Source: Dehalococcoidia bacterium (GTDB lineage Bacteria > Chloroflexota > Dehalococcoidia > UBA2979). Taken from it: a stretch of 64,000 bases of DNA. Where the stretch lies: NCBI GenBank assembly GCA_964291495.2, contig OZ219872.1, positions 128,001 through 192,000 of the forward strand, in the 5' to 3' direction. Shown piece after piece: positions 7,308 to 26,667 of the stretch. Position 1 is the stretch's first letter, and each line of letters opens with the position of its first letter. The notes beneath the pieces are model-generated. The model did not search any database, was not told the origin of the DNA, and saw nothing but the letters and a program-made list of their open reading frames with translations. Position numbers and translations under genes: made by a program.

Positions 7308-7333
7308 GGGGCCGTCGCCTGTGCGGCGGCCCC
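7308..7333 (+). terminator. GC-rich hairpin
   Basis: ggggccgtcgc-ctgt-gcggcggcccc just after the stop at 7294. Confidence 0.55.
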
Positions 7334-8762: not shown

Positions 8763-8910
8763 TTGCGCGCAACGTGAACCGGTGCTCGGAGGTCCGGATG
8801 GGGGCCGCGACGGCTGGAAGAGGTTTGATGCAGCCGCGCAGCGTTGCCAGTTGAGATTCAGTTGCGTCGCTCCGTCGCTCACGTCAACCCGAACCTCGGG
8901 GACCGCTGCC

Positions 8911-11900
8911 TCAGTTGCCGTCGCCGCCCGCGGCGACGAGGGGCGTTCCGGGCGGGAGGCCGTGCGGGAAGAGCTTGCTGAAGGGCTCGTTGACGAAGTC
9001 CGGCGCCCCAGGGAAGTACGAGACGTACGCGCCGTCCACGAGCGCGTACAGCGCGGCGATGCCGAGGCTGCGCGCGCAGGCATCCAGTGCCTCGACGCTC
9101 CCGCCCTCGTGGACGACCAGGCTGAAGCGGGGGCCGACCTCCCCGCGCAGGCACTCCGGCGCGGGCTCGGCGTCCTCCGCCCCGGCGCCGGCGAACCACA
9201 CGCGGTAGACCGCCGTGCGCGTGCCGTCGTCCGAGGTCACCGTGACGGTCACCGGTGCGTTCGGCCGGAGCATCGCCTGGTGGCCGTTCGCGGGGTCGCC
9301 GTCGGCATCGGCGGGCGCGATCACGACGGTGGCGCTGGCCTGCGAGGGCACGGCCTCGACCGTCGCCTGCGTGAGGCCCGCGGCCGCCACACCCGCGTAC
9401 TCGGTGCGGCCGGGCGAGAAGGCCCCGAAGGAGACGCCGTCCAGCGCCAGGGAGGAGAGGCCCGTGGCGAGGGCCTCCGGCTCGCCGCCCTTCACTACCA
9501 GTGGCGTGCTTGCGGGCAGACCCTCGGCAAACAGCTCGCGGAAGGGGCGGTTCACGAACTCGGGCGCGCCGACGTGGTAGGACACCCACTCGCCCTCATG
9601 CAGCGCGTAGAGCGCCGTCACGCCGCGTTCCGCACTGCAGGTTGCCAGGTCGTCGACGCTGCCCCCTCGCGCGAGCACGAGGCTGAAGCCACCGGCCACG
9701 ACGGGGCCGCGCAAGCACTCCGCCGGCCGCCCGTCGAGGCCCGCGTGCGGTGGGACGGGCTCTTCGGGGCCCGCGAGCGCCACGCGATAGACGCGCGTGC
9801 GGCTGCCGTCGGGCGAGGTGACGGTGACGGTGATCTCCCGGACCCCCGCCAGTGTGACCTGGTAGCCCTCGCTGCTGTCGCCGTCGGCGTCGGGGGGCTC
9901 GATGACGACGGTGGCTTCGGCCTGCGCGGGCACGGCTTCGACCGTCGTCTCCTCCACGCCCGTCCCGGCGCCGCCCTCGTACCCCAGGCGCCGCGGCGAG
10001 AACTCGCCGAACTCGATGCCGGCGAGCGTGAGCGAGGACAGGCGCGCGTCGATGGCGTCGGGCATGTTGTAGCTGTAGACGCGGCCGTCGTTGGCGTCGG
10101 CGACGTACATCACCTCGCCGTCCGACCAGAGGCCGCGCGGACTGAGGTTGCTCGCGCCGGTGAGCTCCGTGAATTCCTCGTCGCGCACGCGCTGGAGCGG
10201 CTGTGCCTCCTCGGCGGCGCTCGCCGCGTCCGGGGCGGGCAGCCGGTAGGCGAAGAGCCGCTTGGCGCTGTGGTCCGAGACCCAGGCGGTGAAGCCGTCC
10301 GACCAGATCCCGCGAGGGTCGCTGTTGGCCGGGTCGAGGGCATGGACGCCGAGCAGCTGGCCGCTCACCGGGTGGTAGGCGTAGAGGGAGGGGTTGCGGT
10401 TGAGCACGAACATCGTCGCGCCGTCTGTCCAGATGCCGCGCGGGTCGCGGTTGCCCCGGTCAAGCTGGATGTCGCGGTCCTCGAGGCGCTCGCCGCTCTC
10501 CCGGTCGTAGGCGAAGAGCCGGTCGCGGCCACTGTCGGCGACCCAGAGGACGCCGCCGGCGCCGGCAACGCCTCTGGGCGCGCCGTTGCGCGCGTCGAGC
10601 TCGAACTCGCGCTCCGCGAGGCGCTCGCCGCTCGCCAGGTCGTAGGCGTAGACGGCGTCGCCCGACCCGTCCGGGTTGTTCGCGAGCCAGAGCGTCGTCC
10701 CGTCGGACCAGGCGCCGGTGGGCAGGTTGTGCTCCGCGTCCAGCTCCTCGATGTCACGCTTCACGTTCCACTCGAAGTCAGCCTTGCTGGGCGTGGGGCC
10801 GGACGGCCCGCCGCCGCCACCACCCCCGAATCCGCCCGGCACGAACACAACCGGCGGGGGCGCGGCGCCATCGACGAGAGTGACGGACACGGATCCGATG
10901 AAGCCTTCGTCGTGATAAGCGTCGATGTCGATGCGCTCGTCGCCGTCGTCCACGCCGTCGTAGCGGGTCCGGAAGGTCGCCCGCGCCGCCTGCGCGCCCC
11001 GCCGCAGCGTGAGGAAGCAGGATGAGCCCGCGCACCCGCCCGGGCGCAGGTAGTCGTCCCCTGTCGTGGCCGTGCCGCCGAGCCTCAGCTCGATCTCCTG
11101 GGCGTCGGGGAATGTCACGCCGCCGGTGTCGACGGTCACCACGAGGGTCTGCCCCTCCGTCAGCTGCTCGGCGGACGCGGTCACGGTGAAGTTGGCGGCG
11201 TCGTCATCGGCGACGGCGACCGTGGCGTGGTTCGTCGGGGTCGTCAGGTAGGTGGGCGGGTTGGCCGAGCTGCCGATCAGGTACACCGCCACCTGGCCGC
11301 CCGCCGCCCGCACGACCGTGTCGTCGCGCGTCGGCAGGCTCAGTGACGCCGTCGCGCTGCCGGCGGCGAACGACGCGGTGGAGGGCGCGCTGGCGCTGAG
11401 ACTCGCCCCCGTGGCGACCACCCGCACGGAGACCGTCAGCGCGGCGGTGGTGGCGTCGGTGCGTTGCAGCGTGAACGACGCCGCCTCGCCTTCGGTGACG
11501 CCGCTGCCCGCGCTGATGGTCACGTCCGGCAGGTTCGCGACGTCGCTCGGCGGAATCGTGACCGTGCGGCTGCCGAAGGGCGCGTTCGCGACCGTGCGGC
11601 CACCGACGAACGTGTTCGCGAGGGCGAGCGTGGCCCTGATCGTGACGGTCTCGTCGGTAGGCTCGGCGGCGCTGTCGTCCGTCGCCCGGATCGTGAAGCT
11701 CGTCGATGATCCTCCGGCGGCGAGGGTCACGGAGTAGGGCGAGGACAGCGTCGAACCGCCCGCTTCCAGCGTGAAGTCGGTCCCGGCCGTGGCGCTGCCG
11801 CTGACCGCGAGGTTGATGGTCGCGGCCTCGGCGAAGGTGACGCCGTTGGTGATCTCGAGGGTGAAGGTGGCGCTCCCTCCCTCCGCCAGCTCGCCCTCGA

Positions 11901-14900
11901 CGCGGCTGAAGGCAATGGCGAGGCGGGTAGCGTCCGTGAGCGTGACGGTGGTCGAGGAGGTCGATCCCGTACCGATGGCGGCGGGCAGCGTCCCGAAGCC
12001 GAGGACGACGGTTTCATCTCCTTCGACCAGCGCGTCGGTGGCGGCCTGGATGCTGAGTGTCTTGCTGGTCTCGCCGCGCTCGAACGTCACGCTCTGCGCG
12101 GTTGCGAAGTCCGGCGTGAAGTCGGCCTGCGAAGCGCTCGACGCGTCCGAATCGAGGACGATGGGGATGGTCACGCCGCCGGCGGCCTGGTGCGCCCGGC
12201 TCAGCCGCACGACGACCGAGCCCGACGCACCCTCCCTGGCGCTGTACGTAGCCCGCTGGAACGAGACGAGCGGCGCCGGAGTGACCACGGCTGTGAGCGC
12301 CTGCTTCAGCGTGGTCCCGTCGGCCGCGCAGATGCCGCCATCGGCGCAGGCCTTGTTGGCGAGCAGCCGGAGCGTGACCGCGCCTTCGCCGGCGGGGTCG
12401 AGCGTGAACAGGTAGGCGTTGGCAGGCTCGCCGTCCGCGACCAGGGCGCTGACGGCGGTGATCGTGCCGCCCGAGACGCTCAACGAGGGCGACGTGGTCG
12501 CGAAATCGACGACGGGCCGGTTGAACGTCACCAGCACCTGGGGCGTGTCGTCGTCGCCCCGGTGGAACGCGGAGGTCCGATCGCTGGCGGGCGCGGCGGC
12601 GCTGAGCGCGACCGGCTGGGGCGCGAGCGCGTAGGCGGGCACGGCGGTCGCCCGGACGTTGGCCTGGAACTCGGATTCGGCGGCCGCGGGAATCGTGAAC
12701 GACAGCTTCTCCGTCCCGGTGCGCGGATCAACCTGGGTGATGGCTTCGTCGGGGCTGAGCTTCGCCGATTGCAACTCCACCTGGCGCTCGCGGCCCCAGC
12801 CGATGAGCCAGTCGCCATTGTCGAGCACGTCCACATGGCCGCCGCGGGTGCCGGCCCGGTCATCGGTGCCGTGCAGCGAGTGGTCATACAGGAACACCGC
12901 CTCGCCGTTGGTGAGGTCCAGTGCGTACGCCACTGCCCGGGCGTACTCGTAGGATGTCCGCGTACTCTCGCCGGTCGCCGGATCGACGAAGCAGTGCTCG
13001 CCGTTGTCGAATAGCGTCAGGCGACCGTCCTGGCCGTCGGGCCGCATCTCGGCGCCGTGCTGGCCGCAGAACTCGCCCTCGGGATCGCCGACGATCCGAA
13101 GCGGCGCAGGCCCGATGTTACGCGCTGTCCACTCCTCCGCCGTGAGGCCGCTGCGGCCGAGACGCCACTCGACCTTGCCCGTGGACGCATTGATGCTCAG
13201 CACCTTCGAGCAGCCGCGGAACGAGCCGATGACGCTGCCCTCGAAGTACTGGACCAGATTCACGTGCGCGTATTCATCCCACCAGTGCGCCAGGCAGTCC
13301 TCGTACGCCATGGTTCGCTCTGACGTCCAGGTTCGAGAGACGCCCTGCGAAGGGGTGAGTATCTGAATGGCCGAATCGCTGAGGGCTTCCGACGTTGTGA
13401 ACTGCGTCGTACGCCAGTCCTCGGTAAAGCGGCCCCAGAGCCTGCCGCTGTCATTGCTGCCCTCGGGGTCGTCTGCCAGGAGGCTCTCGTGGAGGGCAAC
13501 GTGACTGATGTCCCGGTTGACCGCCAGCTCGTAGGACATCAGCAGGTAGCCGCCGTTGTCGAGGACGCGGAAGTCGTGGACTCCCGTGCACCCCAGCGGT
13601 GACTTGGAGGAGACCGTTGTCAGCTGCGCGAAGTCCTCGTCCAGCACATGATGCGTGGCGACGCATCCCCTTGCCGGGCGAGTGGTGTAGTGCCAGCGGA
13701 ATTCGCGGCTCGACCCGACCCGGTAGTGGCGGAAGAACATCCGCGGCCTCGTCTCGGGCCGATCGTGGTAGCGAGGCACGCCCTGGTTGTCGACGACGGC
13801 CAGGTAGTTGCCGTACGCAAACGAGATCAGTGACTGGGTGATCTCGCCCATGCCCCGGTCGATCGCCTCCATCGTGGCGAGGAAGTCCTGCACGCAGTGC
13901 ACGACGTAGTCCGTGTACCCGCCGTTGGCGGCGCTCGCCCGCACCACGACATCGCTGTCCCCGGTCACGGCGACCTCGATGGCCGTGCCGCTCGGGGTCT
14001 GCGTGCCGTTGACCGCCAGGCGGACGCCGGCGGCGGCCGTCGGGGTGACGGTCATCGTGTCCGTGTTCCCGCAGCTGACCTTGTAGTGCAGGACGTCGTC
14101 GGCGAAGCCCGGCGTGAGGGCAATCGTGGTGTCCGTCGTGGTCGCCGTCAGGCCGGTGAGGACGCTCGCGATCACGACGTGGTGCGTGGTCGCCTCGGCG
14201 GTCGCTTTGGTGGCCACTGCGGGACTCTCGCCCGCGCGGTGCCGATCGGTGTAGGTCGCCCTGACGCGCAGGTACTGGCCCGAGTCGCCAGCGACCGGCG
14301 TGTAGCTGGCGCTGGTCGCCCCGGAGATGGTGGTCCAGCTGTTGCGCCCGCTGGAGCGCTGCCAGACCCAGGTGGTCGTGCCGCTCACGGTGTCGGGGTC
14401 GCTCAGCGTGGCGGTGAGCGCCGTCCCGACCTTGGGCCGCACGGGTGACAGGGAGCTCGCGCCCGGTTCGTCGACGTCCGTGACCGTCACGGTCACGGCC
14501 AGCGTGGCGGCAACGCCGCCGACGGTCGCGCTCAGGGTGATCGAGTAGGACCTGTCGGTGTCGTCGTCGTCGGGCGACTCGAAGTCGGGCAGCTTGGGAC
14601 GGGGCGGGGTGTTCGTCGTGTCCGAGGTGTCGATCAGCCGCAGCGCGCCCTTCGGCGTGGAAATGTCGAAGTGGCTCGCGTCCGTGCCGGAGATCGCCCA
14701 GGTGACCTCGTCCACCTCCGCGTCCGCCCCCGACACGCTGAACGTGCCCACGCGAGTGGCGGAGTTCTCGGCGTACGAGAGCGCGGCCGTGCCGCTGATC
14801 GCCGGGGTCCCCGTCGTGGCCGCCTGTGTCGCCGACCAGGCGCCGTCGCCGTCCGCGTTGACGGCGCGCACCTGGAAGTCGTAGCCGGTCGAGGGCGTCA

Positions 14901-15717
14901 GCCCCGTCTGCACGTACGACAGCGCGCCTCCGCCCGTCTCCCAGATGTCGTCCTGCCCGGTCCACTGGCCGTCGGACTTGTCCGTCGCGTCGCTCTTGAT
15001 GTAGCGCAGGTCGTAGGCGGTGATGGCCGCGCCGCCGTCGCTCGAGGGCGCGGTCCACACGACCGTCACCGAGGTCAGCGCCGCCGTCGCCGAGGAGATG
15101 GTGGGGGCAACCGCCACTGCCGCCGGGCCGGGGCCCGATCGCCGCTGGACGGTGGAAGCCCCCTGCCAGTTCACCCGGTGGTTCGGGTCGTGATCCCGCC
15201 CCGCGTGCCCCAGCGTCGCATCGGCCGCCGTCGACGCCGAGCGGATCGAGCCGCCGTTGAGCTCGAGGGTGTTCGCGAGCACGGCGATGCCGCGGGTGGA
15301 GTAGTTCGGCTCCACCACGGTGTGGGCGAAGGTCAGGCTGGCCGTGCCGGTCCCGCCCTCGTAGCTCGCCCACTTCTCGCCCCAGTCTGCCGGGTCCATG
15401 TCGATCTTGAGGCGTGGCGCGCCGCCGACGTGCACCGCCTCGCTGAAGGTCAGCGTCACCCGGATGGTCTCGCCGGGCCCGTAGGTCAGCGCCCGCTGGG
15501 GCGCCGACGTCACGGTCACGCCGGTCACCGTCGGGCCGCTCTGGCCCGCCGCCGTCCCGGGTCCGAGCATCGGGCCGAGGAGCACCACGAGCAGCGCCGC
15601 GACGCGCACGGCGGCGCGGAACGAGCGGAGGCGCTCGATCACTGGCGATTTCCAGCAGGACGTTACTGCGGAAGCGCCCGCTGGCAGCAGGACGACCGGT
15701 GCGACCCGATCAGGCAT
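8911..15717 (-). CDS. Giant secreted surface protein: Ig-like, FN3, cadherin, arylsulfotransferase, Calx-beta, beta-propeller, and a duplicated C-terminal module
   Basis: Signal peptide (start may be GTG 15642); FN3 WTAPSSDGG..YDFQVRAVN; cadherin PDFESP..TVTDVDE; ASST HD/HxN/SxR/QH; Calx-beta DALVEGDET; PRGIWSDG propeller repeats. Confidence 0.88.
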   Translation of the reverse strand: MPDRVAPVVLLPAGASAVTSCWKSPVIERLRSFRAAVRVAALLVVLLGPMLGPGTAAGQSGPTVTGVTVTSAPQRALTYGPGETIRVTLTFSEAVHVGGAPRLKIDMDPADWGEKWASYEGGTGTASLTFAHTVVEPNYSTRGIAVLANTLELNGGSIRSASTAADATLGHAGRDHDPNHRVNWQGASTVQRRSGPGPAAVAVAPTISSATAALTSVTVVWTAPSSDGGAAITAYDLRYIKSDATDKSDGQWTGQDDIWETGGGALSYVQTGLTPSTGYDFQVRAVNADGDGAWSATQAATTGTPAISGTAALSYAENSATRVGTFSVSGADAEVDEVTWAISGTDASHFDISTPKGALRLIDTSDTTNTPPRPKLPDFESPDDDDTDRSYSITLSATVGGVAATLAVTVTVTDVDEPGASSLSPVRPKVGTALTATLSDPDTVSGTTTWVWQRSSGRNSWTTISGATSASYTPVAGDSGQYLRVRATYTDRHRAGESPAVATKATAEATTHHVVIASVLTGLTATTTDTTIALTPGFADDVLHYKVSCGNTDTMTVTPTAAAGVRLAVNGTQTPSGTAIEVAVTGDSDVVVRASAANGGYTDYVVHCVQDFLATMEAIDRGMGEITQSLISFAYGNYLAVVDNQGVPRYHDRPETRPRMFFRHYRVGSSREFRWHYTTRPARGCVATHHVLDEDFAQLTTVSSKSPLGCTGVHDFRVLDNGGYLLMSYELAVNRDISHVALHESLLADDPEGSNDSGRLWGRFTEDWRTTQFTTSEALSDSAIQILTPSQGVSRTWTSERTMAYEDCLAHWWDEYAHVNLVQYFEGSVIGSFRGCSKVLSINASTGKVEWRLGRSGLTAEEWTARNIGPAPLRIVGDPEGEFCGQHGAEMRPDGQDGRLTLFDNGEHCFVDPATGESTRTSYEYARAVAYALDLTNGEAVFLYDHSLHGTDDRAGTRGGHVDVLDNGDWLIGWGRERQVELQSAKLSPDEAITQVDPRTGTEKLSFTIPAAAESEFQANVRATAVPAYALAPQPVALSAAAPASDRTSAFHRGDDDTPQVLVTFNRPVVDFATTSPSLSVSGGTITAVSALVADGEPANAYLFTLDPAGEGAVTLRLLANKACADGGICAADGTTLKQALTAVVTPAPLVSFQRATYSAREGASGSVVVRLSRAHQAAGGVTIPIVLDSDASSASQADFTPDFATAQSVTFERGETSKTLSIQAATDALVEGDETVVLGFGTLPAAIGTGSTSSTTVTLTDATRLAIAFSRVEGELAEGGSATFTLEITNGVTFAEAATINLAVSGSATAGTDFTLEAGGSTLSSPYSVTLAAGGSSTSFTIRATDDSAAEPTDETVTIRATLALANTFVGGRTVANAPFGSRTVTIPPSDVANLPDVTISAGSGVTEGEAASFTLQRTDATTAALTVSVRVVATGASLSASAPSTASFAAGSATASLSLPTRDDTVVRAAGGQVAVYLIGSSANPPTYLTTPTNHATVAVADDDAANFTVTASAEQLTEGQTLVVTVDTGGVTFPDAQEIELRLGGTATTGDDYLRPGGCAGSSCFLTLRRGAQAARATFRTRYDGVDDGDERIDIDAYHDEGFIGSVSVTLVDGAAPPPVVFVPGGFGGGGGGGPSGPTPSKADFEWNVKRDIEELDAEHNLPTGAWSDGTTLWLANNPDGSGDAVYAYDLASGERLAEREFELDARNGAPRGVAGAGGVLWVADSGRDRLFAYDRESGERLEDRDIQLDRGNRDPRGIWTDGATMFVLNRNPSLYAYHPVSGQLLGVHALDPANSDPRGIWSDGFTAWVSDHSAKRLFAYRLPAPDAASAAEEAQPLQRVRDEEFTELTGASNLSPRGLWSDGEVMYVADANDGRVYSYNMPDAIDARLSSLTLAGIEFGEFSPRRLGYEGGAGTGVEETTVEAVPAQAEATVVIEPPDADGDSSEGYQVTLAGVREITVTVTSPDGSRTRVYRVALAGPEEPVPPHAGLDGRPAECLRGPVVAGGFSLVLARGGSVDDLATCSAERGVTALYALHEGEWVSYHVGAPEFVNRPFRELFAEGLPASTPLVVKGGEPEALATGLSSLALDGVSFGAFSPGRTEYAGVAAAGLTQATVEAVPSQASATVVIAPADADGDPANGHQAMLRPNAPVTVTVTSDDGTRTAVYRVWFAGAGAEDAEPAPECLRGEVGPRFSLVVHEGGSVEALDACARSLGIAALYALVDGAYVSYFPGAPDFVNEPFSKLFPHGLPPGTPLVAAGGDGN

Positions 15718-15970
15718 GGCTCGCGCATGGGGGCGACGGCCAGCCGGACGGGAACGTTCCGCCGACCGGGTTGATCAGCGGCTGCCCCTGCGACCGGTCG
15801 TTGGCGTTCCATCGCGCCTTGCGGCACGCCTCCGGCTCGGCGCCGTACGAGCCCGAGCAGCGCCACTGACCGTTAGTACGCTGCTCCGGTAGCAGTGGTT
15901 GTGGGTGCCCCGTACGCGCGGTTGTCGTCGTTGTCGGCCGGCGCCAAACCTGCCCCGCGGGGGTAACCAA
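15710..15970 (-). pseudogene. Frameshifted remnant paralogous to the middle of the 18772-19905 gene
   Basis: QWRCSGSYGAEPEACRKARWNA..PLINP matches QWRRSGSYGADAAACRRASWNA..PLLNP; two 1-bp deletions in the NRAV..CYREQR region. Confidence 0.75.
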
Positions 15971-16009
15971 CGGAATCCCTCCCGGTCCCTGTGCAACGGC
16001 CCGACCGGG

Positions 16010-16073
16010 ACTTTACCTGACGAGATGTAACTACTACGTAACCCTTGCCCTCTATGAGCATGATTTTTTGTGA
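16010..16073 (-). promoter_or_regulatory. Four-box promoter P3
   Basis: TCACA-N5-TCATG-N17-TTACG-N6-TTACA-N10-TAAAGT. Confidence 0.65.
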
Positions 16074-16167
16074 TGTTTCAACCGGAACACCCTGCAAGCC
16101 GGCACGTTCAAGCTGGTAGCGCAGAAGCTCCACAGCTCGCTGGCCCGGCGTGCAGCCGGTCGAGCGA

Positions 16168-16398
16168 TCAGGTGAGGAACCGCAGCTCGGGCAGGCAGGT
16201 TCCACAGCCCTTCACATCCCTCTTGCCGGTGCTCAGCGCCTTATCGATCGCTTCGTCTCGAGTGGGGAAGGGGCCGTGCCAGCGGTTGTCGGGCAGGCGC
16301 GACCCGTACCGGCCCCGGCCATCGTTGCAGTGCGGGCAGCTCGCCCGGTGAACCCGCGCCCAGCTCGTGGCATCGTCCTCGTACACCCACCAGTTCAT
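16168..16398 (-). CDS. Small Cys/His-rich putative metal-binding protein
   Basis: MNWWVYED..RVHRASCPHCNDGRG..WHGPF..GCGTC. Confidence 0.65.
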   Translation of the reverse strand: MNWWVYEDDATSWARVHRASCPHCNDGRGRYGSRLPDNRWHGPFPTRDEAIDKALSTGKRDVKGCGTCLPELRFLT

Positions 16399-16514
16399 CG
16401 CTGTAGCGGCATCCGCGATCGCCGAGCCGGCTGCCAACTCGTCGACTCCTCCGGATAGGTCAGGGAGTCGTGTCGCCGGGGAGCGGCAGGTTGATGGACA
16501 CGGTGCTGACAGGA

Positions 16515-16547
16515 GGGAGGCCATCGCCGTCAATGCGATGGCCTCCC
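16515..16547 (-). terminator. Hairpin downstream of the 576-aa gene
   Basis: Perfect 13-bp stem gggaggccatcgc/gcgatggcctccc. Confidence 0.6.
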
Positions 16548-16616
16548 CCGGCCGCCCCTGTGTACGGCGTTCCTTGCATTGGCAGGCCTCGCCGCCTACC
16601 GGAGCCCCGGCGGCAA

Positions 16617-18347
16617 CTACCTCTTGTACCCGGAGTCCGGGCAGGGCCCGGTGCCGCCCCAGATCCACTCCACTGGTGTGCCCCAGCGGTCGTAGATGAC
16701 GCAGTGGCGCATCAGCCACGAACCGTCGCTGCCAACGGTGCGCGTCTCGCCGTTGAACTGGTACTGCTCTCCAGGCGTGCGGCGGCCAAACTTCACCTCC
16801 GGGGCGGAGATGGTGTCTTCGGGGGGAGTGAGCGTCGGGTCGGTCTCCGAATCCGGCGCGCTGCTTTCCGGCGGGGTCTTCTCGACGCCCCTGATGTCCA
16901 CCTTGAACACGTGGCCATCCGACTGGCTCGCCCATCCGCCAGGCCCCGCAATGTACCTACTGGCGTCTGGTCCTCTAAGGGGGGCGCCGCTCAGGAGCAC
17001 CTGGTTCCCGATGGACCAGCCGTCCGCGCCGCCGCTGTCTTCGTTGTCGGAGAGCGTGGTGACGAACCTGGTTCCCCGGTTGCCTCTCCAGGTGACCTGG
17101 AGGACCAGGAAATAGAGCGTACCGGGCTCCAGGTCGATGCCCCCGGAAGTGCTCAACAAGCTGTTGATGCCGTTCCCGAGCGTCGGGTTGGTCAACGATC
17201 CGACCTTCGCGCCGACCGTCGAGCCGCTGGCCGCGGAGATGTAGGCCGTATAGGCCACCGCGGGGGATAGCTGCGACGAAGCGATCATCGCTGCAATCTG
17301 GACCGAAGTCAGCGTGTAGCCGAGGGTGTTGGCGCCGGTCATGAAGGGAACAGCGAAATGATCGAAATGGAAGTAGACCGTCTGGGCGTCGCTCTGCCCG
17401 GTGTTCGCGATCAGCGTGGTGCCGGTCGGCAGAGGCGTGTTGTTGCTCACCGCCTGGTTGCTGAAGGGCGCCACGTTGACGTTGCCCGTCGCGAGTCGCA
17501 GCGGGTTCTGCGTCGGTTCGCTGTAGCTCACGGTGACCGTCTCGTGCCAGGCGACCGCGCTTGCCAGGGTCACCGTCACGGTCGCGTCGGAGACGGCGAC
17601 CGTGCCCTTGCCGGCGATGGTGCGGGCAGTACCGCCCGAAGGCGTCGCACTCACGGTGAACTGTTGGCCCGACGGCTCCGAGTCGGGGTCCAGGGCCCGG
17701 TCGAAGGTCACGGTGAGCGTCTCCCTGTTCACCGCTGCCGAGGAAATGCGGGGCTGGATCGTGTAGCCCTCGATGGTCATCTTCGGGACGCGGTTCGGTA
17801 TTGACGACGACCACGTGGTGCCGCTCCGAAAATAGAACGCGTTGCCGATCGTCCAGCCCGGCGCCCCGCCGCTGTCTTCGTCCTGCGAGGAGGTCAACCA
17901 CAACCTGGGGTTCTTGTTGCCGGGGGAGGTGATATCGAGGACCACGGAGTAGGTCGTGTCGGCTAGCAGGTCGATGCCGTCGGCAGAGCTGAATGTGTTG
18001 GTCCCGGTGCTGAGGGACGAACTGGAGAGCGTACCCACGCTTGCGCCGACCGACGTGCCGCTGCCCGTGTGGATGCTGACTGTGAAGGTGTGGGATACGG
18101 TAAGACTGGGATTAGCGAATCCTGACACCTGGACCGCGACTGAGGTCAGCTTGTAGCCGTTACTGCTGGAGCCGGTCTCAAAGGGAATGGCCAGATCATT
18201 ACCGAAGACGACGTTATTCGAGGTTGCCTGGCCGTTATTGCTGACCAGCGTGGTGCTGGTCGGCGTCTGGGCGTCAACGGTGGCGGCGCCGAACAGGAAG
18301 ACGGCGAGGACCAGCAGCGAGCCGAGGGCGGTGAGTGGCCGGAACAT
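16617..18347 (-). CDS. Secreted protein with two copies of a beta-rich 'EDSGG..GW.IG' domain flanking a SwmB-like domain
   Basis: Signal peptide ..AATVDA/Q; repeated TL(V/I).N.GQ..F.TG..GY.LTSV..EDSGGA.GW.IGN; SwmB-like TLTVTFDRALD..VTVSY..P. Confidence 0.8.
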   Translation of the reverse strand: MFRPLTALGSLLVLAVFLFGAATVDAQTPTSTTLVSNNGQATSNNVVFGNDLAIPFETGSSSNGYKLTSVAVQVSGFANPSLTVSHTFTVSIHTGSGTSVGASVGTLSSSSLSTGTNTFSSADGIDLLADTTYSVVLDITSPGNKNPRLWLTSSQDEDSGGAPGWTIGNAFYFRSGTTWSSSIPNRVPKMTIEGYTIQPRISSAAVNRETLTVTFDRALDPDSEPSGQQFTVSATPSGGTARTIAGKGTVAVSDATVTVTLASAVAWHETVTVSYSEPTQNPLRLATGNVNVAPFSNQAVSNNTPLPTGTTLIANTGQSDAQTVYFHFDHFAVPFMTGANTLGYTLTSVQIAAMIASSQLSPAVAYTAYISAASGSTVGAKVGSLTNPTLGNGINSLLSTSGGIDLEPGTLYFLVLQVTWRGNRGTRFVTTLSDNEDSGGADGWSIGNQVLLSGAPLRGPDASRYIAGPGGWASQSDGHVFKVDIRGVEKTPPESSAPDSETDPTLTPPEDTISAPEVKFGRRTPGEQYQFNGETRTVGSDGSWLMRHCVIYDRWGTPVEWIWGGTGPCPDSGYKR

Positions 18348-18352
18348 GGCTA

Positions 18353-18367
18353 CCCCCCCCCCCCCCC
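18353..18367 (-). repeat. G15 homopolymer just upstream of the ATG at 18347
   Basis: 15 consecutive C on the + strand. Confidence 0.9.
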
Positions 18368-18468
18368 GTTATGTCGCAAGGCGCGCGGAGAGCGGTTCGC
18401 GAATCCGACCCCAACCGGGCTGCGCATTGGATCCATGCCAGTCACCTCCACTGATAGACTCACGGAGT

Positions 18469-18532
18469 AGTATGCCAGCATGCGCATTACTGATTCGTGA
18501 TCTAGAGCGTCAATATACGTAATGTTTTGTAA
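18469..18532 (-). promoter_or_regulatory. Four-box promoter P2
   Basis: TTACA-N5-TTACG-N17-TCACG-N6-TAATG-N10-CATACT, with extended -10 TG. Confidence 0.7.
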
Positions 18533-18771
18533 CTTCCTGCCATGTGCGGCAGGTCCGGTGGTCACCACCACCTGCGCGTGAGGCTCGACCTGGGGAGGAC
18601 CGCTACGGCTCTCCCGCCTACCGGCCCCGCGCTCGCCCCCGCCCACCACCAGCGGCGTGATGATCCCGATGGCCACCCGGCCGCGAGAGGCATCGAGCAC
18701 TGCCCGTACGCCGCGGGCGCGGTGAGCAGCCCCGCGCCGAGCGACCTCACGAAGCTGGCGAGGAGCACCGT

Positions 18772-19905
18772 TTAACGCGCATAGCCGGTCACGGCGATCT
18801 TGTAGGCGCGGGTCGTGCTGTGCACCCAGTTGCCGCTGCTATTCGTGTACGAGTACGCGTCATGGATGCTCCAGCCCGGGCTGGCGCCGCTGTCCTCATC
18901 ATCAGAGGGCGTGGCCCACTGGCCGATCCCGCTGGCCTCCGTCGTGACCTCGACCAATATGAAGTAGTTCGTGTTGGCGCTCAGCCTGATGCCATCGCCG
19001 GCCGTGAGCGTGCGCACGCCGCCCCCGAACTCGTCCGGCGGGTCCAGCGTTCCCAGAACGGTACTGCCCGGGACGCCGCTGGATACATCGCGGATGGACA
19101 CGGTGAAGGTCGGGGTGCTTGTGTCGCTGGCACTCTGATCCCTGACCCAGAACTCGACGGCAGTCAGGATCCACTCCCGGTTCCCCTGGGGGAGACTGCC
19201 CGTCCTGAACTGCTGCGCATAGCGCCGCCCGCTTCTCCACGTTGCCCACCCCGAGGTGCTCTGGTTGAGGTTGCTGACGAGCCTCGTGGGCGTCACGACG
19301 CGCCCACGCGAGTCGCGCGGAGGCGGCTGACCACCCTGGAACGTTCCGCTGGCCGGGTTGAGCAGGGGTTCGCCCTCGGCGCGGTAGTGCGCGTTCCAGC
19401 TCGCCCTGCGGCAGGCAGCGGCGTCGGCGCCGTACGAGCCCGAGCGGCGCCACTGACCCCCGATGCGCTGCTCCCGGTAGCAATTGCCGTCGGAACCGCG
19501 CACGGCGCGGTTGTTCGGGCCGGCCTGGAAGGTGAAGGCCGCGTGGTTCGTGCCGTCTGCGAGTGGCTGGTTCACGGGCGGTCGCGTGTTGCCCTGCTCC
19601 GCGACCGGGCGGACGGTCGAGCGGATCACCCCACCTCGTTCGTACGGCGTAACCACGCGATCGCCGTCGTAGAGGAACTGAATCTCACCGTTGGAGCCCC
19701 ACTTGAATGCCCAGCCGGGCTTCGCTTCGTCGCACGGGATGTCGGATACCGAGCCGGGGTTGTAGGAGCCCGCGACATACCAGGTCCCGGTCCTCGAGTT
19801 GCACTGCACGGAGAAGGACTCGGCGCCGGCGCGGTCTCCGGTCGCGAACGCGAACGTCGCCACTATGGCGAACGCCGCAAGCAGCCCGATGAACCTCCCT
19901 CGGAT
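18772..19905 (-). CDS. Secreted protein: Cys-containing N-terminal modules plus one 'EDSG..GW.I' domain; apparent ATC start
   Basis: Signal peptide IRGRFIGLLAAFAIVATFAFATGDRAGA follows GGAGGAG; first canonical start is GTG 19863; C-terminal domain homologous to the repeats of the 16617 gene. Confidence 0.72.
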   Translation of the reverse strand: MRGRFIGLLAAFAIVATFAFATGDRAGAESFSVQCNSRTGTWYVAGSYNPGSVSDIPCDEAKPGWAFKWGSNGEIQFLYDGDRVVTPYERGGVIRSTVRPVAEQGNTRPPVNQPLADGTNHAAFTFQAGPNNRAVRGSDGNCYREQRIGGQWRRSGSYGADAAACRRASWNAHYRAEGEPLLNPASGTFQGGQPPPRDSRGRVVTPTRLVSNLNQSTSGWATWRSGRRYAQQFRTGSLPQGNREWILTAVEFWVRDQSASDTSTPTFTVSIRDVSSGVPGSTVLGTLDPPDEFGGGVRTLTAGDGIRLSANTNYFILVEVTTEASGIGQWATPSDDEDSGASPGWSIHDAYSYTNSSGNWVHSTTRAYKIAVTGYAR

Positions 19906-19997
19906 GATTCCCTCCTCCGCTTCCGTTCACCCGCAGTCCCGGGCGGTCCCGTCAGGCCTGCCGGGGCGTCCGGCAGGCCTGGTCCGGGAAGGCGTCA
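19892..19997. repeat. Intergenic module (hairpin + RBS), copy A; copy B at 20952-21059
   Basis: Shared gtcaggcctgccgg.gcgtccggcag..ggaaggcgt and tcctccgcttcc; hairpin 19954-19980. Confidence 0.8.
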
Positions 19998-20111
19998 GGG
20001 TGTCGTGCTTCCGGAGAGCGGCAGGTTGATGGACACCGTGCTGAGGGTCGGAACGTTGGGGATCCCCAGATGGTCACGGCCGACACGGTCAACAACACCT
20101 GCCAGCTCTCG

Positions 20112-20846
20112 TCAGTCGCATATCGAGACGCTGGTGTTGAACTCCGCTGCAAGCCTGGCCTGCAGCTTTCGGCACGCTTCGTCGACCTGCTCCCTGGAGC
20201 CAATGTCGACGTCAAGCGTAGAACTCGCGACAGGCTCCACCATCAAGATGGTCGTGCTCGCTGGCCTGACCTTGTCGCGAATGATCCCGGTCACGGTCAC
20301 GGGCTCAGCGGGCTCCACGAAGGACTCTGCGGCTTCTTCCCGGGTGGTGTACGTGGCGGTCACGTCGAAGGACCCGACGTCGCTACCGGTTTCATATCGC
20401 AGCGGCTCGACGCCGCCGTCCGTCGGCTGGGTGTAGGAGACGCGGACGGCGCTGTCCCGTAGCGTCTGCAGCTCCGCCTCGGTGACGGCGCCATCCCGTC
20501 GCTCCACAAGGGTGACTGTCAGACGCCGGTGATGGAACGTGAGGGAGCGGGAGCTGTACTCGGGCGCGACGCCACCCACCGTGACGGTGACGGCGGACGG
20601 ATCGGGCCCGGTCGTGCGCAGCGCGTCGCTGAAGTCGAGGTTCACGACAGTCGTGATGGTGGTGGTGACAGTGGGAGGAGTGGTGCGCTCATCGGTGGTG
20701 ACGTCGGCGATGACCTGGAACGTCGCGCTCGGCGCGACGTCGGCGTGTGCGACGCCCATCGAGGCCCAGACCAGGGCCAGGGCGGCGGCGAGCGCGAAGG
20801 TCGCCCCGCCAACGCGCGACTTCACAGTGCGGTCCATTGCAACCAT
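20112..20846 (-). CDS. Secreted SwmB-like domain protein
   Basis: Signal peptide ..GVAHA/DVA; LDFSDAL..VTVTVGG..VRVSYTQP..LRY; paralog of 21057-21608. Confidence 0.72.
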   Translation of the reverse strand: MVAMDRTVKSRVGGATFALAAALALVWASMGVAHADVAPSATFQVIADVTTDERTTPPTVTTTITTVVNLDFSDALRTTGPDPSAVTVTVGGVAPEYSSRSLTFHHRRLTVTLVERRDGAVTEAELQTLRDSAVRVSYTQPTDGGVEPLRYETGSDVGSFDVTATYTTREEAAESFVEPAEPVTVTGIIRDKVRPASTTILMVEPVASSTLDVDIGSREQVDEACRKLQARLAAEFNTSVSICD

Positions 20847-20906
20847 CCTTCCCACAGGGCGGCCTTCCTCGGGCCGCCCCAATGGCTCGTCGATCGAGGC
20901 ATCCTT
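20735..20906. repeat. ~170-bp direct repeat (5' UTR + signal peptide), paired with 21496-21667
   Basis: Near-identical gaggcccagaccagggccagggcggcggcgagcgcgaaggtcgcccc...gcaaccatcc...cggccttcctcgggcc...gatcgaggcatcct. Confidence 0.9.
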
Positions 20907-21056
20907 AACGCGCGGCCGTTGTTCGACTGCCGCTGTGCCCGCCCGATGGACGTCCCTCCGGTGATTCCCATCCTCCGCTTCCATTCGCTCGCCGGTGCCG
21001 GTCCCCGTCAGGCCTGCCGGAGCGTCCGGCAGCCCCGGTCCCGGAAGGCGTGAGCG

Positions 21057-21608
21057 TCATTCGCTCCCGACGCCCGGGAACTTGATGGTGACGCTGGAGA
21101 GGGTCGGCGAATTGGGGAAGATGATGGTCAGCGGCCGATCGGGCTCCGGGCGGCGATCAACGCGGACGTACGCGTGGTACGGGCCGTGGCCGTGAACGAC
21201 AGTCAGGTCGAAGTTCACGAGATCGGCGCCGGATGCGTATTGCAGGCGCGAGAGGCCGGCGTCCTCGGGCGGCGTGTAGGAGATCCCGATGGAGCCCGTC
21301 AACTGCCCGTCCAGGGTGATGAGCAGATTGCTGCCATCGAACGTGAGGGAGCTGTACTCGTGCGCGACGCCATCCACGGTGACGGCGATGGCGGATGATT
21401 CGGGCAGGGTCGTGCCCAGCGTCTCGTCGAACTCGACGGTCACGATAGTCCTGGTGCCCGAGCCATCGGTGTGGTGGCGGACATCCGCGCCTCGCGCGAC
21501 GTCGGCATGTGCGACGCCCGTCGAGGCCCAGACCAGGGCCAGGGCGGCGGCGAGCGCGAAGGTCGCCCCACTCAGACGCGATTTCACGATGCGGCGCATT
21601 GCAACCAT
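21057..21608 (-). CDS. Secreted SwmB-like domain protein
   Basis: Signal peptide ATFALAAALALVWASTGVAHA; VEFDETL..VTVDG..ISYTPP..LQY. Confidence 0.75.
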   Translation of the reverse strand: MVAMRRIVKSRLSGATFALAAALALVWASTGVAHADVARGADVRHHTDGSGTRTIVTVEFDETLGTTLPESSAIAVTVDGVAHEYSSLTFDGSNLLITLDGQLTGSIGISYTPPEDAGLSRLQYASGADLVNFDLTVVHGHGPYHAYVRVDRRPEPDRPLTIIFPNSPTLSSVTIKFPGVGSE

Positions 21609-21696
21609 CCCTCCCGCGGGCCGGCCTTCCTCGGGCCACCCCACTGGCTCTTCGATCGAGGCATCCTCGATGCCCTCCACCGAGAGAGTCACGGGG

Positions 21697-21760
21697 ATTA
21701 TGCCATCACGTGCATTACCGGTGCGTGACTTATCGAGCCATTGCCCGTAATGATTTGTAA
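21697..21760 (-). promoter_or_regulatory. Four-box promoter P1, divergent from the hybrid kinase
   Basis: TTACA-N5-TTACG-N17-TCACG-N6-TAATG-N10-CATAAT, with extended -10 TG. Confidence 0.72.
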
Positions 21761-21859
21761 CTAGCGGCGATCTGCGGCATGATTGCCCCGTCGACGCTGA
21801 ATCCCGCGAGCCGTGCGCGCGGCGGCGCCGCACTTCCCCCTCGAAGGCGAGGTGACGAG

Positions 21860-24274
21860 TTGAACCGAACCGACGAACAAGACCGACGGATCCGGGAGCT
21901 GGAAGAGCGCCTCTCCCGCCTGAGCGAGGCCAGTCTTCGCATCACCGAAGACCTCGACTTCAACACCGTGCTGCAGGGCGTGCTCGACGCGGCCCGCTCC
22001 CTCACCGGCGCGCGCTACGGCGTCATCGCCCTGCACGGCGACGACGCGACGGCGGAGGACTTCCTCTCCTCGGGGATGACCGTGGAGGAGACCGCCAGGC
22101 TGTGGACGTCGCCGGGCTGGCCCAGCCACTTCGAGTACCTGAGCAGGCTTCCGGGTCCGCTGCGAGTACCCGATCTGCCCGGCCACATCAGGTCGCTGGG
22201 CCTCCCGGAGCTGATTCCCCCGGTGGCGGTGAGCGAGCAGGTGCCCTTCATGGCGACTCCCGTGCTGCACCGCGGAGAGCGCGTCGGCAGCATCTACCTC
22301 GCCGAGAAGGAACGCGCGGAGGAGTTCACCCGGGAGGACGAGGAGACGCTCGTGCTGTTCGCCTCCCAGGCGGCGATGGCCATCGCCAACGCACGCCGGC
22401 ACCGCGAGGAGCGGAGGGCCAGGGCCGACCTCGAGACGCTGATCGATACCTCACCCGTGGGCGTGGTGGTGCTCGACGCCGCGACGGGGGCGCCCAGCTC
22501 GTTGAACCGGGAGGCCCGGAGAATCGTCGACAGCCTGCGTGATCCCGACCAGACCCGCGAAAGCCTCCTCGAGACGGTGACCTTCCGCCGCGCCGACGGG
22601 CGCGAGGCCTCGCTGCAGGAGGTCCCGATGGTTGAGCTCCTGGGCGCCGGTGAGACGGTGCGGGCCGAGGAGATTGTCCTGTGTGTCCCCGACGGACGCA
22701 GCGTCACCGTGCTGCTCAACGCCACGCCCGTACGCTCCGACGATCGGGTGGTCGAGTCGGTGGTCGTCACCCTGCAGGACATGGCCGAGGTCGAGGAGCT
22801 GGAGCGGCTGCGGGCGGAGTTCCTGGCGATGGTCAGCCACGAGCTCAGGGGTCCCCTGACCTCGATCAAGGGCTCGGCCGCCACGGTGCTGGACTCTCCC
22901 TCCGAGTTCGACCCCGTCGTGGTGCGCCAGTACTTCCGCATCATCGGGGACCAGGCCGACCACATGAACGCCCTGGTCTCCGATCTGCTGGACGTGGCCC
23001 GCATCGAGACGGGCGAGCTGGCGGTCAGTCCCGAGCCGGCGGAGGTGGCCGTGCTCGTGGACCGGGCGCGGACCGCCTTCCCGAGTCTGGGAGGCGGGAA
23101 CAGCCTCTCCATCGACATCGCGCCGGACCTGCCCCTGGTGGCGGCGGACCGGCGGCGCATCGTGCAGGTGCTGGGCAACCTGCTGTCAAACGCGGTCCGG
23201 CACTCCCCGGAGTCGTCCGTCATCACGGTGACGGCGGAGCGGCAGGGCGTGCACGTGGCCGTCTCGGTGGTGGACGAGGGGCGGGGCATCCCGGCGGAGA
23301 GCCTGCCGCACCTGTTCCGCAAGTTCTCCAGGACGCAGCCCGAGGAGCAGGAGGGCGACACGGGCCTCGGCCTCGCCATCTGCAAGGGGATCGTGGAGGC
23401 TCACGGCGGCCGCATCTGGGCGGAGAGCGACGGGCCGGGACTGGGGGCGCGCTTCACCTTCACCCTGCCCTCGGTGGAAGAGACCGGCAGCAGCGCTTCA
23501 AGCGGGCTCGCGACCGTTCCTCGGCGGTCCTCCCCGACACGCAGGCGGCGGGACGCCGGGGAACGGGTGCGCGTCCTCGCCGTGGACGACGACCCAAACG
23601 ACCTCCGCTACGTCCGCGACGCCCTCGTCCAGGCGGGCTACGCGCCGCTGATGGCCGGCGACGCGCGGGAGGCGCTCAGCCTGATGGAGGCCGAGGCGCC
23701 GGACCTGGCGCTGCTCGACCTGATGCTGCCCGGCACGAACGGCATCGAGCTGATGAAGGAAATCCTGAACGTGGCGGACGTGCCGGTTATCTTCCTGTCC
23801 GCCTACGGCGGAGACGAGCTCGTCGCCCAGGCCTTCGAGATGGGGGCTGTCGACTACGTCGTCAAGCCCTTCTCGCCAACGGAGCTCGCGGCGAGGATCA
23901 AGGCCGCCCTCCGACGCCGGGAGGTATCCGAACCAACGGAGCCATACGTGCTCGGCGAGCTGACCATCGACTACCCCGAACGCAGGGTGACGGTCGACGG
24001 GCGCCCGGTCCATCTGACCGCGACGGAGTACGGGCTGCTCGCCGAGCTCTCGACCCACGCCGGGCGGGTGTTGACCCATCAGCATCTGCTGGAGCGCGTC
24101 TGGGGGGAGAAGGGCGAGGGCGATGTGCGCCCCATGCGCACCATCGTGAGCAAGCTCCGCCGCAAGCTGGGCGAGGACGCCGACCACCCCCGCTACATCT
24201 TCACCGAGCCCCGCGTCGGCTTCCGCATGCCCAGGGGGACGGCGCTGGACGGGGAGGCGGGCGAGGATTCCTGA
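21860..24274 (+). CDS. Soluble hybrid sensor-regulator: GAF-PAS-HisKA-HATPase-REC-OmpR/PhoB wHTH
   Basis: SHELRGPL, NLLSNA, DEGRGI, GLGLAIC, VLAVDDD..LLDLMLP..KPFS, LTATEY..LRRKL..TEPRVGFR; GAGGTG + TTG at 21860 (ORF open from 21779). Confidence 0.92.
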   Translation: MNRTDEQDRRIRELEERLSRLSEASLRITEDLDFNTVLQGVLDAARSLTGARYGVIALHGDDATAEDFLSSGMTVEETARLWTSPGWPSHFEYLSRLPGPLRVPDLPGHIRSLGLPELIPPVAVSEQVPFMATPVLHRGERVGSIYLAEKERAEEFTREDEETLVLFASQAAMAIANARRHREERRARADLETLIDTSPVGVVVLDAATGAPSSLNREARRIVDSLRDPDQTRESLLETVTFRRADGREASLQEVPMVELLGAGETVRAEEIVLCVPDGRSVTVLLNATPVRSDDRVVESVVVTLQDMAEVEELERLRAEFLAMVSHELRGPLTSIKGSAATVLDSPSEFDPVVVRQYFRIIGDQADHMNALVSDLLDVARIETGELAVSPEPAEVAVLVDRARTAFPSLGGGNSLSIDIAPDLPLVAADRRRIVQVLGNLLSNAVRHSPESSVITVTAERQGVHVAVSVVDEGRGIPAESLPHLFRKFSRTQPEEQEGDTGLGLAICKGIVEAHGGRIWAESDGPGLGARFTFTLPSVEETGSSASSGLATVPRRSSPTRRRRDAGERVRVLAVDDDPNDLRYVRDALVQAGYAPLMAGDAREALSLMEAEAPDLALLDLMLPGTNGIELMKEILNVADVPVIFLSAYGGDELVAQAFEMGAVDYVVKPFSPTELAARIKAALRRREVSEPTEPYVLGELTIDYPERRVTVDGRPVHLTATEYGLLAELSTHAGRVLTHQHLLERVWGEKGEGDVRPMRTIVSKLRRKLGEDADHPRYIFTEPRVGFRMPRGTALDGEAGEDS

Positions 24275-24286
24275 GCGCGGGGGAGC

Positions 24287-25657: not shown

Positions 25658-25821
25658 GGGCAGCGGAGGCGCCGTACGCAGCGATCTTGTTATGACGGGT
25701 GTAGAGCCCGCGTCGGAGTCTGCCGAGGCGAGCAGACGTTTCAAGCGGCTTGCGACCACTCCGGCTGGCCACTGCGCCCTGCTGCCGTGACGTAGGCTAG
25801 ATTTGGAGGCGGAGTTCCCAC

Positions 25822-26667
25822 ATGGAGTTCAGCGTCCCCGACTTCATCGAAGGTCTTGGCGCGGAGCTCATCGCCGCATACGAGCGCGGCGGCATGGCAA
25901 CGTCGCCAGGCGCCATTGGGGCAGCTCGCGAAGGCCCTGTGCGGCGGAAGCTGGCCCAGGTCTTTGCGGGTGGGGTCGGGATCGGCACAGGATTCGTCAT
26001 CGACGCTGAGGGGAACGTGTCCAAGCAGCAGGACGTCATTCTTTACGAAAAGGACTTCTGTCCTGTCTACCGCATCAACGAGATAGACGAGGTTGCTTAC
26101 TACCCTTGCGAGGGAGTCTTCGCTGTCGGCGAGGTCAAGAGCACCATCGGTTCGGTAGAGTTCGACGACATTCTTGAGAAGATAGCAAGCGTGCGCCGGC
26201 TCCGCCGTCACATTGACAAGGAACAAGCTGTAATCGGGCCGCCGCGGGAGTACGTGGCGTTTCGCCACTATGGCGTCGGCACTTCGTTCGAAGGCACTGC
26301 GGAAGAGGACTACGTGCAGGACAAGTCTGAGCGCCACCAAATATACGGATTCGCCATTGGGAGGACGATCCAAGCACTGGAGCAGCGCCTCGCGACTCTC
26401 CGAGAAAGACTCGACGATGGAGATGCTGTGTACCTTCCTAATCTGATTGTGAGCCTTGAACAGAATATTGGGCTGGTTCCCTACAGCAGCGCCGACAGCC
26501 CTCAAGGCACCGCTCTTAATGCGAGCTACTATCGCGCGCATCGCCCTAGCACACAGCAAGCCTTCCTACCGCTCGTTCAACAACTTAGATCGTCGTTCAA
26601 TTCGGGCGTGACTACAGCCCTAGATGCCTATCGAGCCTACTACGTGAGACAGCCAGAGAAGTCGTGA
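25822..26667 (+). CDS. DUF6602-like PD-(D/E)xK protein
   Basis: GAARE, GFVID..SKQQDVILYE, P.EGV.AVGEVKS; lower GC than flanks. Confidence 0.72.
   Translation: MEFSVPDFIEGLGAELIAAYERGGMATSPGAIGAAREGPVRRKLAQVFAGGVGIGTGFVIDAEGNVSKQQDVILYEKDFCPVYRINEIDEVAYYPCEGVFAVGEVKSTIGSVEFDDILEKIASVRRLRRHIDKEQAVIGPPREYVAFRHYGVGTSFEGTAEEDYVQDKSERHQIYGFAIGRTIQALEQRLATLRERLDDGDAVYLPNLIVSLEQNIGLVPYSSADSPQGTALNASYYRAHRPSTQQAFLPLVQQLRSSFNSGVTTALDAYRAYYVRQPEKS

Follow-up and report, generated by a model that had tools for sequence, protein, structure and literature searches.

A window of 64,000 nucleotides from a Dehalococcoidia bacterium (assembly GCA_964291495.2, contig OZ219872.1, positions 128,001 to 192,000) was analysed for three promoters, hereafter P1, P2 and P3, which carry four short boxes at a fixed spacing and lie beside the gene for a fused sensor kinase and OmpR-type regulator. 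The four-box architecture is confined to these three promoters within the genome, is conserved in related genomes and co-occurs with one clade of the kinase. Taken as a whole, the explanation that we regard as rather probable is that the four boxes constitute the operator of the adjacent fused sensor-regulator, which would act on them as a PhoB-like activator. The boxes are linked to this protein because of their adjacency to its gene, their specificity for its clade, their co-occurrence with it across genomes and a difference in the recognition helix between the clades.

The three promoters are located on the minus strand and share the layout box-N5-box-N17-box-N6-box-N10-(-10) (P1, 21697-21760; P2, 18469-18532; P3, 16010-16073), their sequences reading exactly as in the first-pass annotation, which had claimed an identical four-box spacing for all three. 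The boxes were recognised in the sequence and by pattern and matrix scans, and the -10 hexamers were read from the sequence and from a survey of sites. In P1 the boxes are TTACA-N5-TTACG-N17-TCACG-N6-TAATG (21713..21760) and the -10 hexamer is CATAAT (21697..21702), with TGg in front forming an extended -10 element. P2 carries the same boxes (18485..18532) and the hexamer CATACT (18469..18474), again with TGg in front, and P3 has the boxes TCACA-N5-TCATG-N17-TTACG-N6-TTACA (16026..16073) followed by TAAAGT (16010..16015).

Both strands of the whole genome (G000, 3,079,595 bases) were scanned with the spaced motif, as the first-pass annotation had proposed, in the form of the degenerate strict pattern THAYR-N5-THAYR-N17-THAYR-N6-THAYR; the three matches obtained were P1, P2 and P3. 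With up to one mismatch allowed, the window again gave three matches, as against none in 100 shuffles. A weight matrix trained on 27 sites from other genomes, none of them from G000, placed the same three at the top of ~6.2 million positions (P1 35.3, P3 33.2 and P2 24.5 bits), and the best other position reached only 11.1 bits. The earlier suggestion of a self-contained regulon is thus borne out by the pattern and by the foreign-trained matrix for this genome, in which all three sites lie no more than 6 kb from the kinase; it does not extend to the relatives, where the sites are dispersed.

A hand count of P1 against P2 gave identity at 20/20 box positions and 5/6 positions of the -10 hexamer, as against 21/38 spacer positions, and the similarity extends into the leader; P3 is more diverged than either. 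On this comparison P1 and P2 are paralogous copies, and the keeping of the boxes while the spacers drifted suggests selection on the boxes. Beyond box 1, P2 retains a decayed remnant of the far side of P1 (gtgcggcaggtc vs ctgcggcatgat), which marks it as a duplicate of the P1 region in its entirety.

The gene facing P1 (21860..24274, plus strand) encodes a cytoplasmic sensor-regulator with the order GAF-PAS-HisKA-HATPase_c-REC-Trans_reg_C, as judged from Pfam, hydropathy and its relatives, the last domain being a winged helix-turn-helix (wHTH). The kinase core is formed by HisKA (PF00512) at 345-412 and HATPase_c (PF02518) at 457-565, the receiver by PF00072 at 599-708 (E 3.1e-25) and the output by Trans_reg_C (PF00486) at 741-817 (E 9.5e-20), so that Pfam accounts for every domain required by the mechanism proposed below. 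The H-box reads SHELRGPL, and the receiver motifs VDDD, LLDLMLPG, FLSAYG and VKPF were recognised in the translation by eye, without a residue-level reference alignment. Pfam gave neither an HPt domain nor an HTH_18 match on this protein. As the strongest Kyte-Doolittle 19-residue window reaches only 1.27, and falls inside the receiver domain, the protein is expected to be soluble and to have no membrane helix. Domain order and hydropathy thus agree with the earlier description of a gene of this composition, devoid of transmembrane segments and back-to-back with P1. Kinase and regulator are held in a single open reading frame (ORF), unlike a stand-alone response regulator with a separate kinase.

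A genome collection was searched with the kinase and 54 loci were examined, among which 23 (L001-L023) carry close relatives, mostly full-length and 59-86% identical, and the other 31 carry unrelated kinases and served as controls. The metagenome-assembled genomes (MAGs) from which the 23 derive are titled Dehalococcoidia, SAR202 or Chloroflexota, with the exception of one Acidimicrobiia and one Acidobacteriota. The strict pattern gave seven matches, distributed over 6 of the 23 relative loci and without exception on the opposite strand to the kinase; the 31 controls gave none. The matrix detected sites in 14 of the 23, as against three weak matches (15.4 bits or less) in the controls, and the enrichment of the motif next to homologous kinases, which the first-pass annotation had put forward as a check, is therefore strongly positive. 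Strict sites occur beside kinases that are 59-77% identical across genomes, with unrelated spacers and unrelated cargo. Nine relative loci had no matrix match: L002 and L021 offer no upstream sequence, six belong to another clade of the kinase and L013 carries a copy that, by eye, is diverged.

In a kinase tree of 22 rows, the 12 matrix-positive rows together with L013 (assigned by eye) constitute one clade of 13, which includes the kinase of the window, and in 12 of these 13 rows a four-box promoter is present just upstream of the kinase on the opposite strand. No matrix match was obtained in the other clade, comprising nine rows with three paralogues from G000 itself. The recognition helix differs between the clades, being RPMRTIVSKLRRKL in the four-box clade vs R(A/V)LRTH(V/L)RRLR in the other; upstream of the kinases of the latter, inspection by eye reveals four direct repeats in the same frame, with half-sites GTCACC/GTTCAC and a -10 element after N10. 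L003 and L013, both members of the four-box clade, combine an altered helix (H in place of R) with altered boxes 3-4. These differences in helix and half-site look like specificity co-variation.

The genome G000 encodes four full-length fused kinases, namely that of the window and the paralogues at C2:97716, C6:261550 and C2:94584. The matrix found no fitting site at these three paralogues, which by eye have different direct repeats (GTCATC-N5-GTCATC; four GTATGA-like boxes), and that every kinase paralogue has an operator of its own is a reading by eye. Two of the paralogues, C2:94584-96965 (plus strand) and C2:97716-100112 (minus strand), are convergent on one contig with their 3' ends ~750 bp apart, and in L020 two fused kinases stand back to back around a single four-box site.

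The reading frame of the window's kinase is open from an ATG at 21779 (21779-24274). The alignment of the relatives begins at residue ~24-28, and a TTG at 21860 is preceded by a GGCGAGGTGAC ribosome site, both features being matched in L006, L013, L023 and others; on these grounds the true start is probably TTG 21860 rather than ATG 21779. A putative -10 element for the kinase, CATGAT (21778..21783, plus strand), was read from the sequence 16 nt past box 1, and TATAAT or CATAAT was seen by eye at the same position in L018, L004 and L020. The four boxes at P1 would thus lie between two divergent -10 elements, making the region bidirectional.

The co-occurrence was further examined in 301 genomes of the class, kinase presence being defined as a match at E<=1e-120. 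The kinase is present in 56/301 genomes; it is found in 4/4 genomes of the genus and in 0/12 genomes of other genera of the family. The strict pattern occurs in 26 of the 301, and by our own cross-tabulation 20 of these 26 are kinase-positive. The 56 kinase-positive genomes contain 43 strict matches vs none for a reversed-pattern control, and the 245 kinase-negative genomes contain 8 strict matches vs 10 for the control, which is chance level. Among the matches listed, a strict site is located 57-127 nt upstream of the kinase and divergent from it in 11 genomes, G000 included. Given the controls and the margin, chance or circularity seems unlikely to account for the co-occurrence.

The geometry of the promoters was surveyed in 30 distinct strict sites with flanks, for which offsets of 0-21 after box 4 were scanned. 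A [TC]A...T hexamer is present 9 or 10 nt past box 4 in 28/30 sites, and at any other offset in five sites at most. TGn precedes the hexamer in 21/30 sites, 6-7 nt separating it from the end of box 4. No sigma-70 -35/-10 pair was found in positions 8500-24500 of the window. The consensus of the 30 sites is GTnACAAnAAGTCATnGAnAA...AAnAGTnAC......GTTACA, and positions left free by the pattern are conserved as well, with a G before each box in 20-27 of the sites and A-rich spacers. The boxes start at 0, 10, 32 and 43, those of a pair being 10 or 11 bp apart from start to start, which places the four half-sites on one face of the helix. PhoB binds pho boxes in which the direct-repeat pair ends ~10 bp before the -10 element and no -35 is present, and direct repeats with comparable half-sites are known for the Bacillus subtilis PhoP (TT(A/T/C)ACA) and for MtrA (GTCACA). 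The boxes, ending 9-10 bp before the -10 hexamer, fit the OmpR/PhoB-type direct repeats that had been claimed for them, and they appear to stand in place of a -35 element, as in PhoB-type (class II) promoters.

The following mechanism can be proposed. The soluble protein would be a dimer held through HisKA, in which the GAF and PAS domains sense a cytoplasmic cue; autophosphorylation and transfer of the phosphate to its own receiver would free the two winged-helix domains. Each dimer would then occupy one head-to-tail pair of half-sites (consensus GTnACA/GTCATR) with starts 10 or 11 bp apart, and two dimers on the two pairs, whose starts are 32 bp or three helical turns apart, would share one face of the DNA. 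The pair nearer the promoter, ending 9-10 bp before the extended -10 element, would stand in for the -35, and RNA polymerase would be recruited as by PhoB. The targets switched on in this way would be B1-B2-C at P1, D at P2 and, at P3, the giant gene E. The distal pair of P1 would also occupy the -35 position of the divergent kinase promoter and may thus mediate autoregulation.

Several points weigh against this proposal. That the regulator binds the boxes, passes phosphate to its receiver and activates instead of repressing is our inference, as is the kind of signal sensed. No RNA run was found to cover the locus and the raw Hi-C run X4 placed no reads on it, and the transcription starts at P1-P3 are only predicted. 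Because the strict pattern was taken from sites of the window itself, searches with it are partly circular, a problem that the reversed-pattern control and the matrix trained on foreign sites lessen without removing. The genomes compared are related, so that they are not independent samples. In 36 of the 56 kinase-positive genomes no strict match is present, many of these probably carrying only paralogues of the other clade or diverged boxes. The genome also has separate OmpR-type regulators, which are potential binders of such repeats, and the same geometry could serve repression, since promoters with an extended -10 can work without a -35 element.

The main rival is indeed repression by the same protein at the same boxes, whereby constitutive extended -10 promoters would be blocked across -35 to -12 until a signal arrives. 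The frequency of the TGn element and its closeness to the end of box 4 are in keeping with this, and a canonical -35 is absent under either explanation. However, sites that end 9-10 bp short of the -10 hexamer are characteristic of PhoB-type activators, the operators of repressors usually lie over the -10 element or the transcription start, and an array of four phased boxes placed upstream of a core promoter is typical of activators; repression is considered unlikely. It is quite improbable that a different protein, for instance a separate OmpR-family regulator, binds the boxes while the fused kinase only travels with the cargo or feeds phosphate to that protein. Separate REC-wHTH proteins are encoded in G000 (for example at C6:876409-877107, C6:34035-34721 and C5:1079748-1080395) and GTnACA-like direct repeats are common among OmpR-family sites, but the boxes track one fused-kinase clade at the short distances given above, the recognition helix varies between clades together with the half-site, and the fused protein carries a complete wHTH of its own. 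That the similarity merely reflects recent duplication of a promoter or intergenic cassette devoid of operator function, in a recombining island in which P1 and P2 are clearly paralogous and other units are repeated too, is very hard to reconcile with boxes that stayed identical between diverged spacers, with a layout kept across genomes whose spacers and cargo are unrelated and with the conservation of positions outside the pattern, such as the G before each box.

The genes placed under the proposed control by activation are arranged as P1 followed by B1-B2-C, P2 followed by D, and P3 followed by an 86-codon ORF and E, all on the minus strand. B1 (21057..21608) encodes 183 residues with a signal-like N-terminal segment, recognised by eye, and no Pfam match; B2 (20112..20846) encodes its tandem paralogue of 244 residues, with 43% identity and likewise a signal-like N-terminus by eye, which is 48% identical to the protein that follows a four-box site in G163, a genome of the same genus. 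C (18772..19863) encodes 363 residues and has no signal peptide in the ORF as called; its C-terminal domain of ~170 residues is present twice in D. When a protein atlas was searched with the domain common to C and D, the clusters obtained were all unnamed (0.92-0.93), apart from a lead to DUF4082 that stayed below threshold (0.87). D (16617..18347) encodes 576 residues with a signal-like N-terminus (by eye), one SWM_repeat and the two domains shared with C. E (8911..15717) encodes an exported-type protein of 2268 residues in which Pfam identifies fn3, an arylsulfotransferase-like propeller, Calx-beta and Cadherin-like domains. The earlier statement that each promoter precedes genes for signal-peptide proteins agrees with the signal-like N-termini of B1, D and E, which were judged by eye. 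The 86-codon ORF in the P3 leader (15710..15970) contains a 52-residue stretch with 62% identity to residues 131-182 of C, and is therefore likely to be a duplicated fragment. A small Cys-rich ORF of 80 residues between D and P3 (16168..16410, minus strand), with a weak match to DUF7120 only, is uncertain as a member of the system.

The leaders of P1 and P2 each contain a short upstream ORF on the minus strand. That of P1, as read from its frame (21584..21664), has 26 codons, stands behind a GGAGG and overlaps the start of B1; that of P2 (18350..18436) has 28 codons and its TAG lies 2 nt before the ATG of D. Strong GGAGG-type ribosome sites occur in the window and in the leaders of L005, L011, L015, L018 and L019, at 32-40 nt from box 4 and ~20 nt from the -10 element, and open ORFs of 23-59 codons that reach or overlap the main gene's start. 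A conserved leader peptide was considered and rejected, the position of the short ORF being kept and the peptides differing between distant loci. An Rfam scan of positions 8000-27000 (E<=1) found no known leader RNA or riboswitch, a lone match to the P4 sRNA being dismissed as a sub-threshold chance match (17.9 bits vs a gathering score of 37), and for the minus strand the terminator scan was uninformative.

A run of 15 G residues (18353..18367, minus strand) is located 5 nt before the ATG of D, inside the end of the 28-codon ORF. It is the longest homopolymer of a genome that has only four runs of nine or more, and its length is 14 and 13 in two other assemblies of near-identical sequence; the difference could be phase variation or homopolymer error. 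A run of 15 C residues is present in the leader of a four-box-driven fn3 giant in G264, of the same genus (L073), and L001 terminates in a run of 14 C residues at a contig edge, downstream of its four-box site.

The cargo in relatives was assessed by Pfam for 19 kinase-adjacent proteins from 11 relative loci. These include tandem leucine-rich repeat (LRR) lipoproteins in L003, Big_12 and fn3 proteins in L009, giant SWM/RTX/fn3 proteins in L018 and L019, a methyltransferase followed by an fn3/cadherin giant in L011, a second fused kinase followed by an fn3/cadherin giant in L020, and a methyltransferase in L006. In L023, from a Dehalococcoidia MAG, the genes divergent from the kinase (1615-7491, minus strand) encode a squalene epoxidase, a cyclase of the squalene-hopene/oxidosqualene type and an MMPL transporter with a sterol-sensing domain, a set that constitutes a sterol-like operon under a four-box promoter. 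Twenty further sites, mostly remote from a kinase, were also considered; 19 had usable downstream sequence, and 24 of the 54 ORFs called there were put through Pfam. At eight of these loci, LRR, fn3, cadherin, SWM_repeat or He_PIG proteins are encoded within the first three ORFs. Elsewhere the sites precede a solute-binding protein, a methyltransferase, a Cache lipoprotein or small proteins lacking a Pfam match, and at seven loci nothing clear emerged. The four-box site of G163 precedes, besides the B2 homologue, an fn3/Cadherin-like protein. To judge from these predicted products, the theme of the cargo is mostly, and not exclusively, exported proteins of the adhesion type ('eukaryotic-like'). 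The earlier view of a secreted adhesin cargo thus describes the dominant class and leaves aside the methyltransferases, the solute-binding protein and the sterol-like operon, and no anchoring or display device was found that would justify the term 'surface display'.

The locus is flanked by a tRNA cluster (6439-6953) with lepA and ABC genes on one side and by thrS, a biotin carboxylase gene, infC and pheST on the other. In genomes of the same genus the distance between the flanks is ~0.3 kb (G264) or 10.9 kb (G092), or they are unlinked (G238), and the ~22 kb between them in the window are therefore regarded as accessory. No integrase or transposase was matched by Pfam in the ORFs scanned at 7.6-28.5 kb, where flanking direct repeats were not searched for, and the description of the system as mobile is reduced to that of a variable island between the tRNA cluster and thrS, absent in one genome of the same genus. 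The region is internally a mosaic of duplications, comprising the B1/B2 units, the fragment of C before E and a 51-nt repeat. The latter is an intergenic element (16459-16509 and 19994-20044, 88% identical) situated just past the stop codons of D and B2, where it may serve in termination or processing. The kinase gene is directly followed by genes for a 456-residue protein with no Pfam match (24287-25657) and a DUF6602 protein (25822-26667). Near the kinases of L018, L019, L011 and L013 there are proteins whose N-termini resemble, by eye, a ThiF-like enzyme, a serine recombinase and a tyrosine integrase, which suggests that the kinase neighbourhoods are variable and possibly of defence or mobile type. 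Positions 16178-16397, around the Cys-rich ORF, are also represented in run X2 by a second contig of higher depth (37x vs ~12x) with 14 differences and 1287 other letters between its two matching parts; a related element therefore exists elsewhere in the X2 community. A 98-nt skip (19612-19711) was seen in small contigs of X1 and X2, its shorter side being 30 letters; the main contigs are collinear.

The regulator resembles the OmpR/PhoB family in its REC and Trans_reg_C domains, in direct-repeat half-sites 10-11 bp apart and in the lack of a -35, and its GTnACA-type half-site resembles those of PhoP and MtrA. It differs from the family in that the regulator is the C-terminus of its own soluble GAF-PAS kinase and in its fixed four-box operator, which doubles as the core of a divergent promoter pair. 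The order HisKA-HATPase_c-REC in one protein is also that of classical hybrid histidine kinases. In phosphorelay hybrid kinases, however, the receiver passes phosphate to an HPt protein and a terminal regulator, whereas here the receiver directly precedes the output domain, an arrangement that dispenses with a relay partner.

The Bacteroides hybrid two-component systems, in the portion of PMC11253607 concerned with them, are membrane-bound proteins with a periplasmic sugar sensor and an AraC-type output that control polysaccharide utilisation loci. They too are single polypeptides that unite a kinase, a receiver and a DNA-binding output, with two DNA-binding domains tethered by the kinase dimer, so that control has to operate within the molecule. 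Another trait in common is expansion into several paralogues per genome, each beside its target genes. In contrast, the family described here has no membrane segment and combines GAF/PAS sensors and an OmpR-type winged helix with a mostly exported, adhesion-type cargo; the window's kinase has neither a membrane-anchored periplasmic sensor nor an AraC/XylS-type HTH output.

Among the genomic signatures of sponge symbionts, eukaryotic-like repeat proteins are the best known. In full-text literature, supplements aside, we found no description of this fused regulator or of the four-box system, in line with the first-pass annotation, which knew of none, and no regulator of genes for eukaryotic-like proteins. 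Sponge Chloroflexi and eukaryotic-like proteins are treated in sections of PMC6306507, which do not deal with their regulation; fusions of histidine kinases and response regulators are counted in part of PMC4558063 irrespective of output domains; and the abstract of PMC13747020 reports that single eukaryotic-like proteins alter the interaction between bacteria and sponges, free-living cyanobacteria being enabled by the expression of single genes of this kind to escape phagocytosis by sponges. The system is best described as a new variant of OmpR-type two-component control and as a soluble OmpR-type counterpart to the fused two-component design of Bacteroides.

The pairing of kinase and boxes recurs in many related uncultured marine bacteria, and the regulon can be read from sequence in dozens of genomes. 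The locus provides an example of a promoter cassette duplicated ahead of new cargo and offers a testable module for uncultured Dehalococcoidia, with a defined protein, a 48-bp operator and predicted transcription starts. It is tentatively suggested, as a possibility that we hold with some doubt, that the soluble fused family is a dedicated switch for host-interaction genes (LRR, fn3, cadherin, SWM-repeat) in sponge-associated Dehalococcoidia of the SAR202 type, with operators specific to each paralogue, portable cassettes and a homopolymer on/off layer. If so, portable promoter cassettes would put newly acquired adhesins under one cytoplasmic cue, and the homopolymer tracts in some leaders, such as the G15 before D, would add a stochastic on/off layer to their expression.

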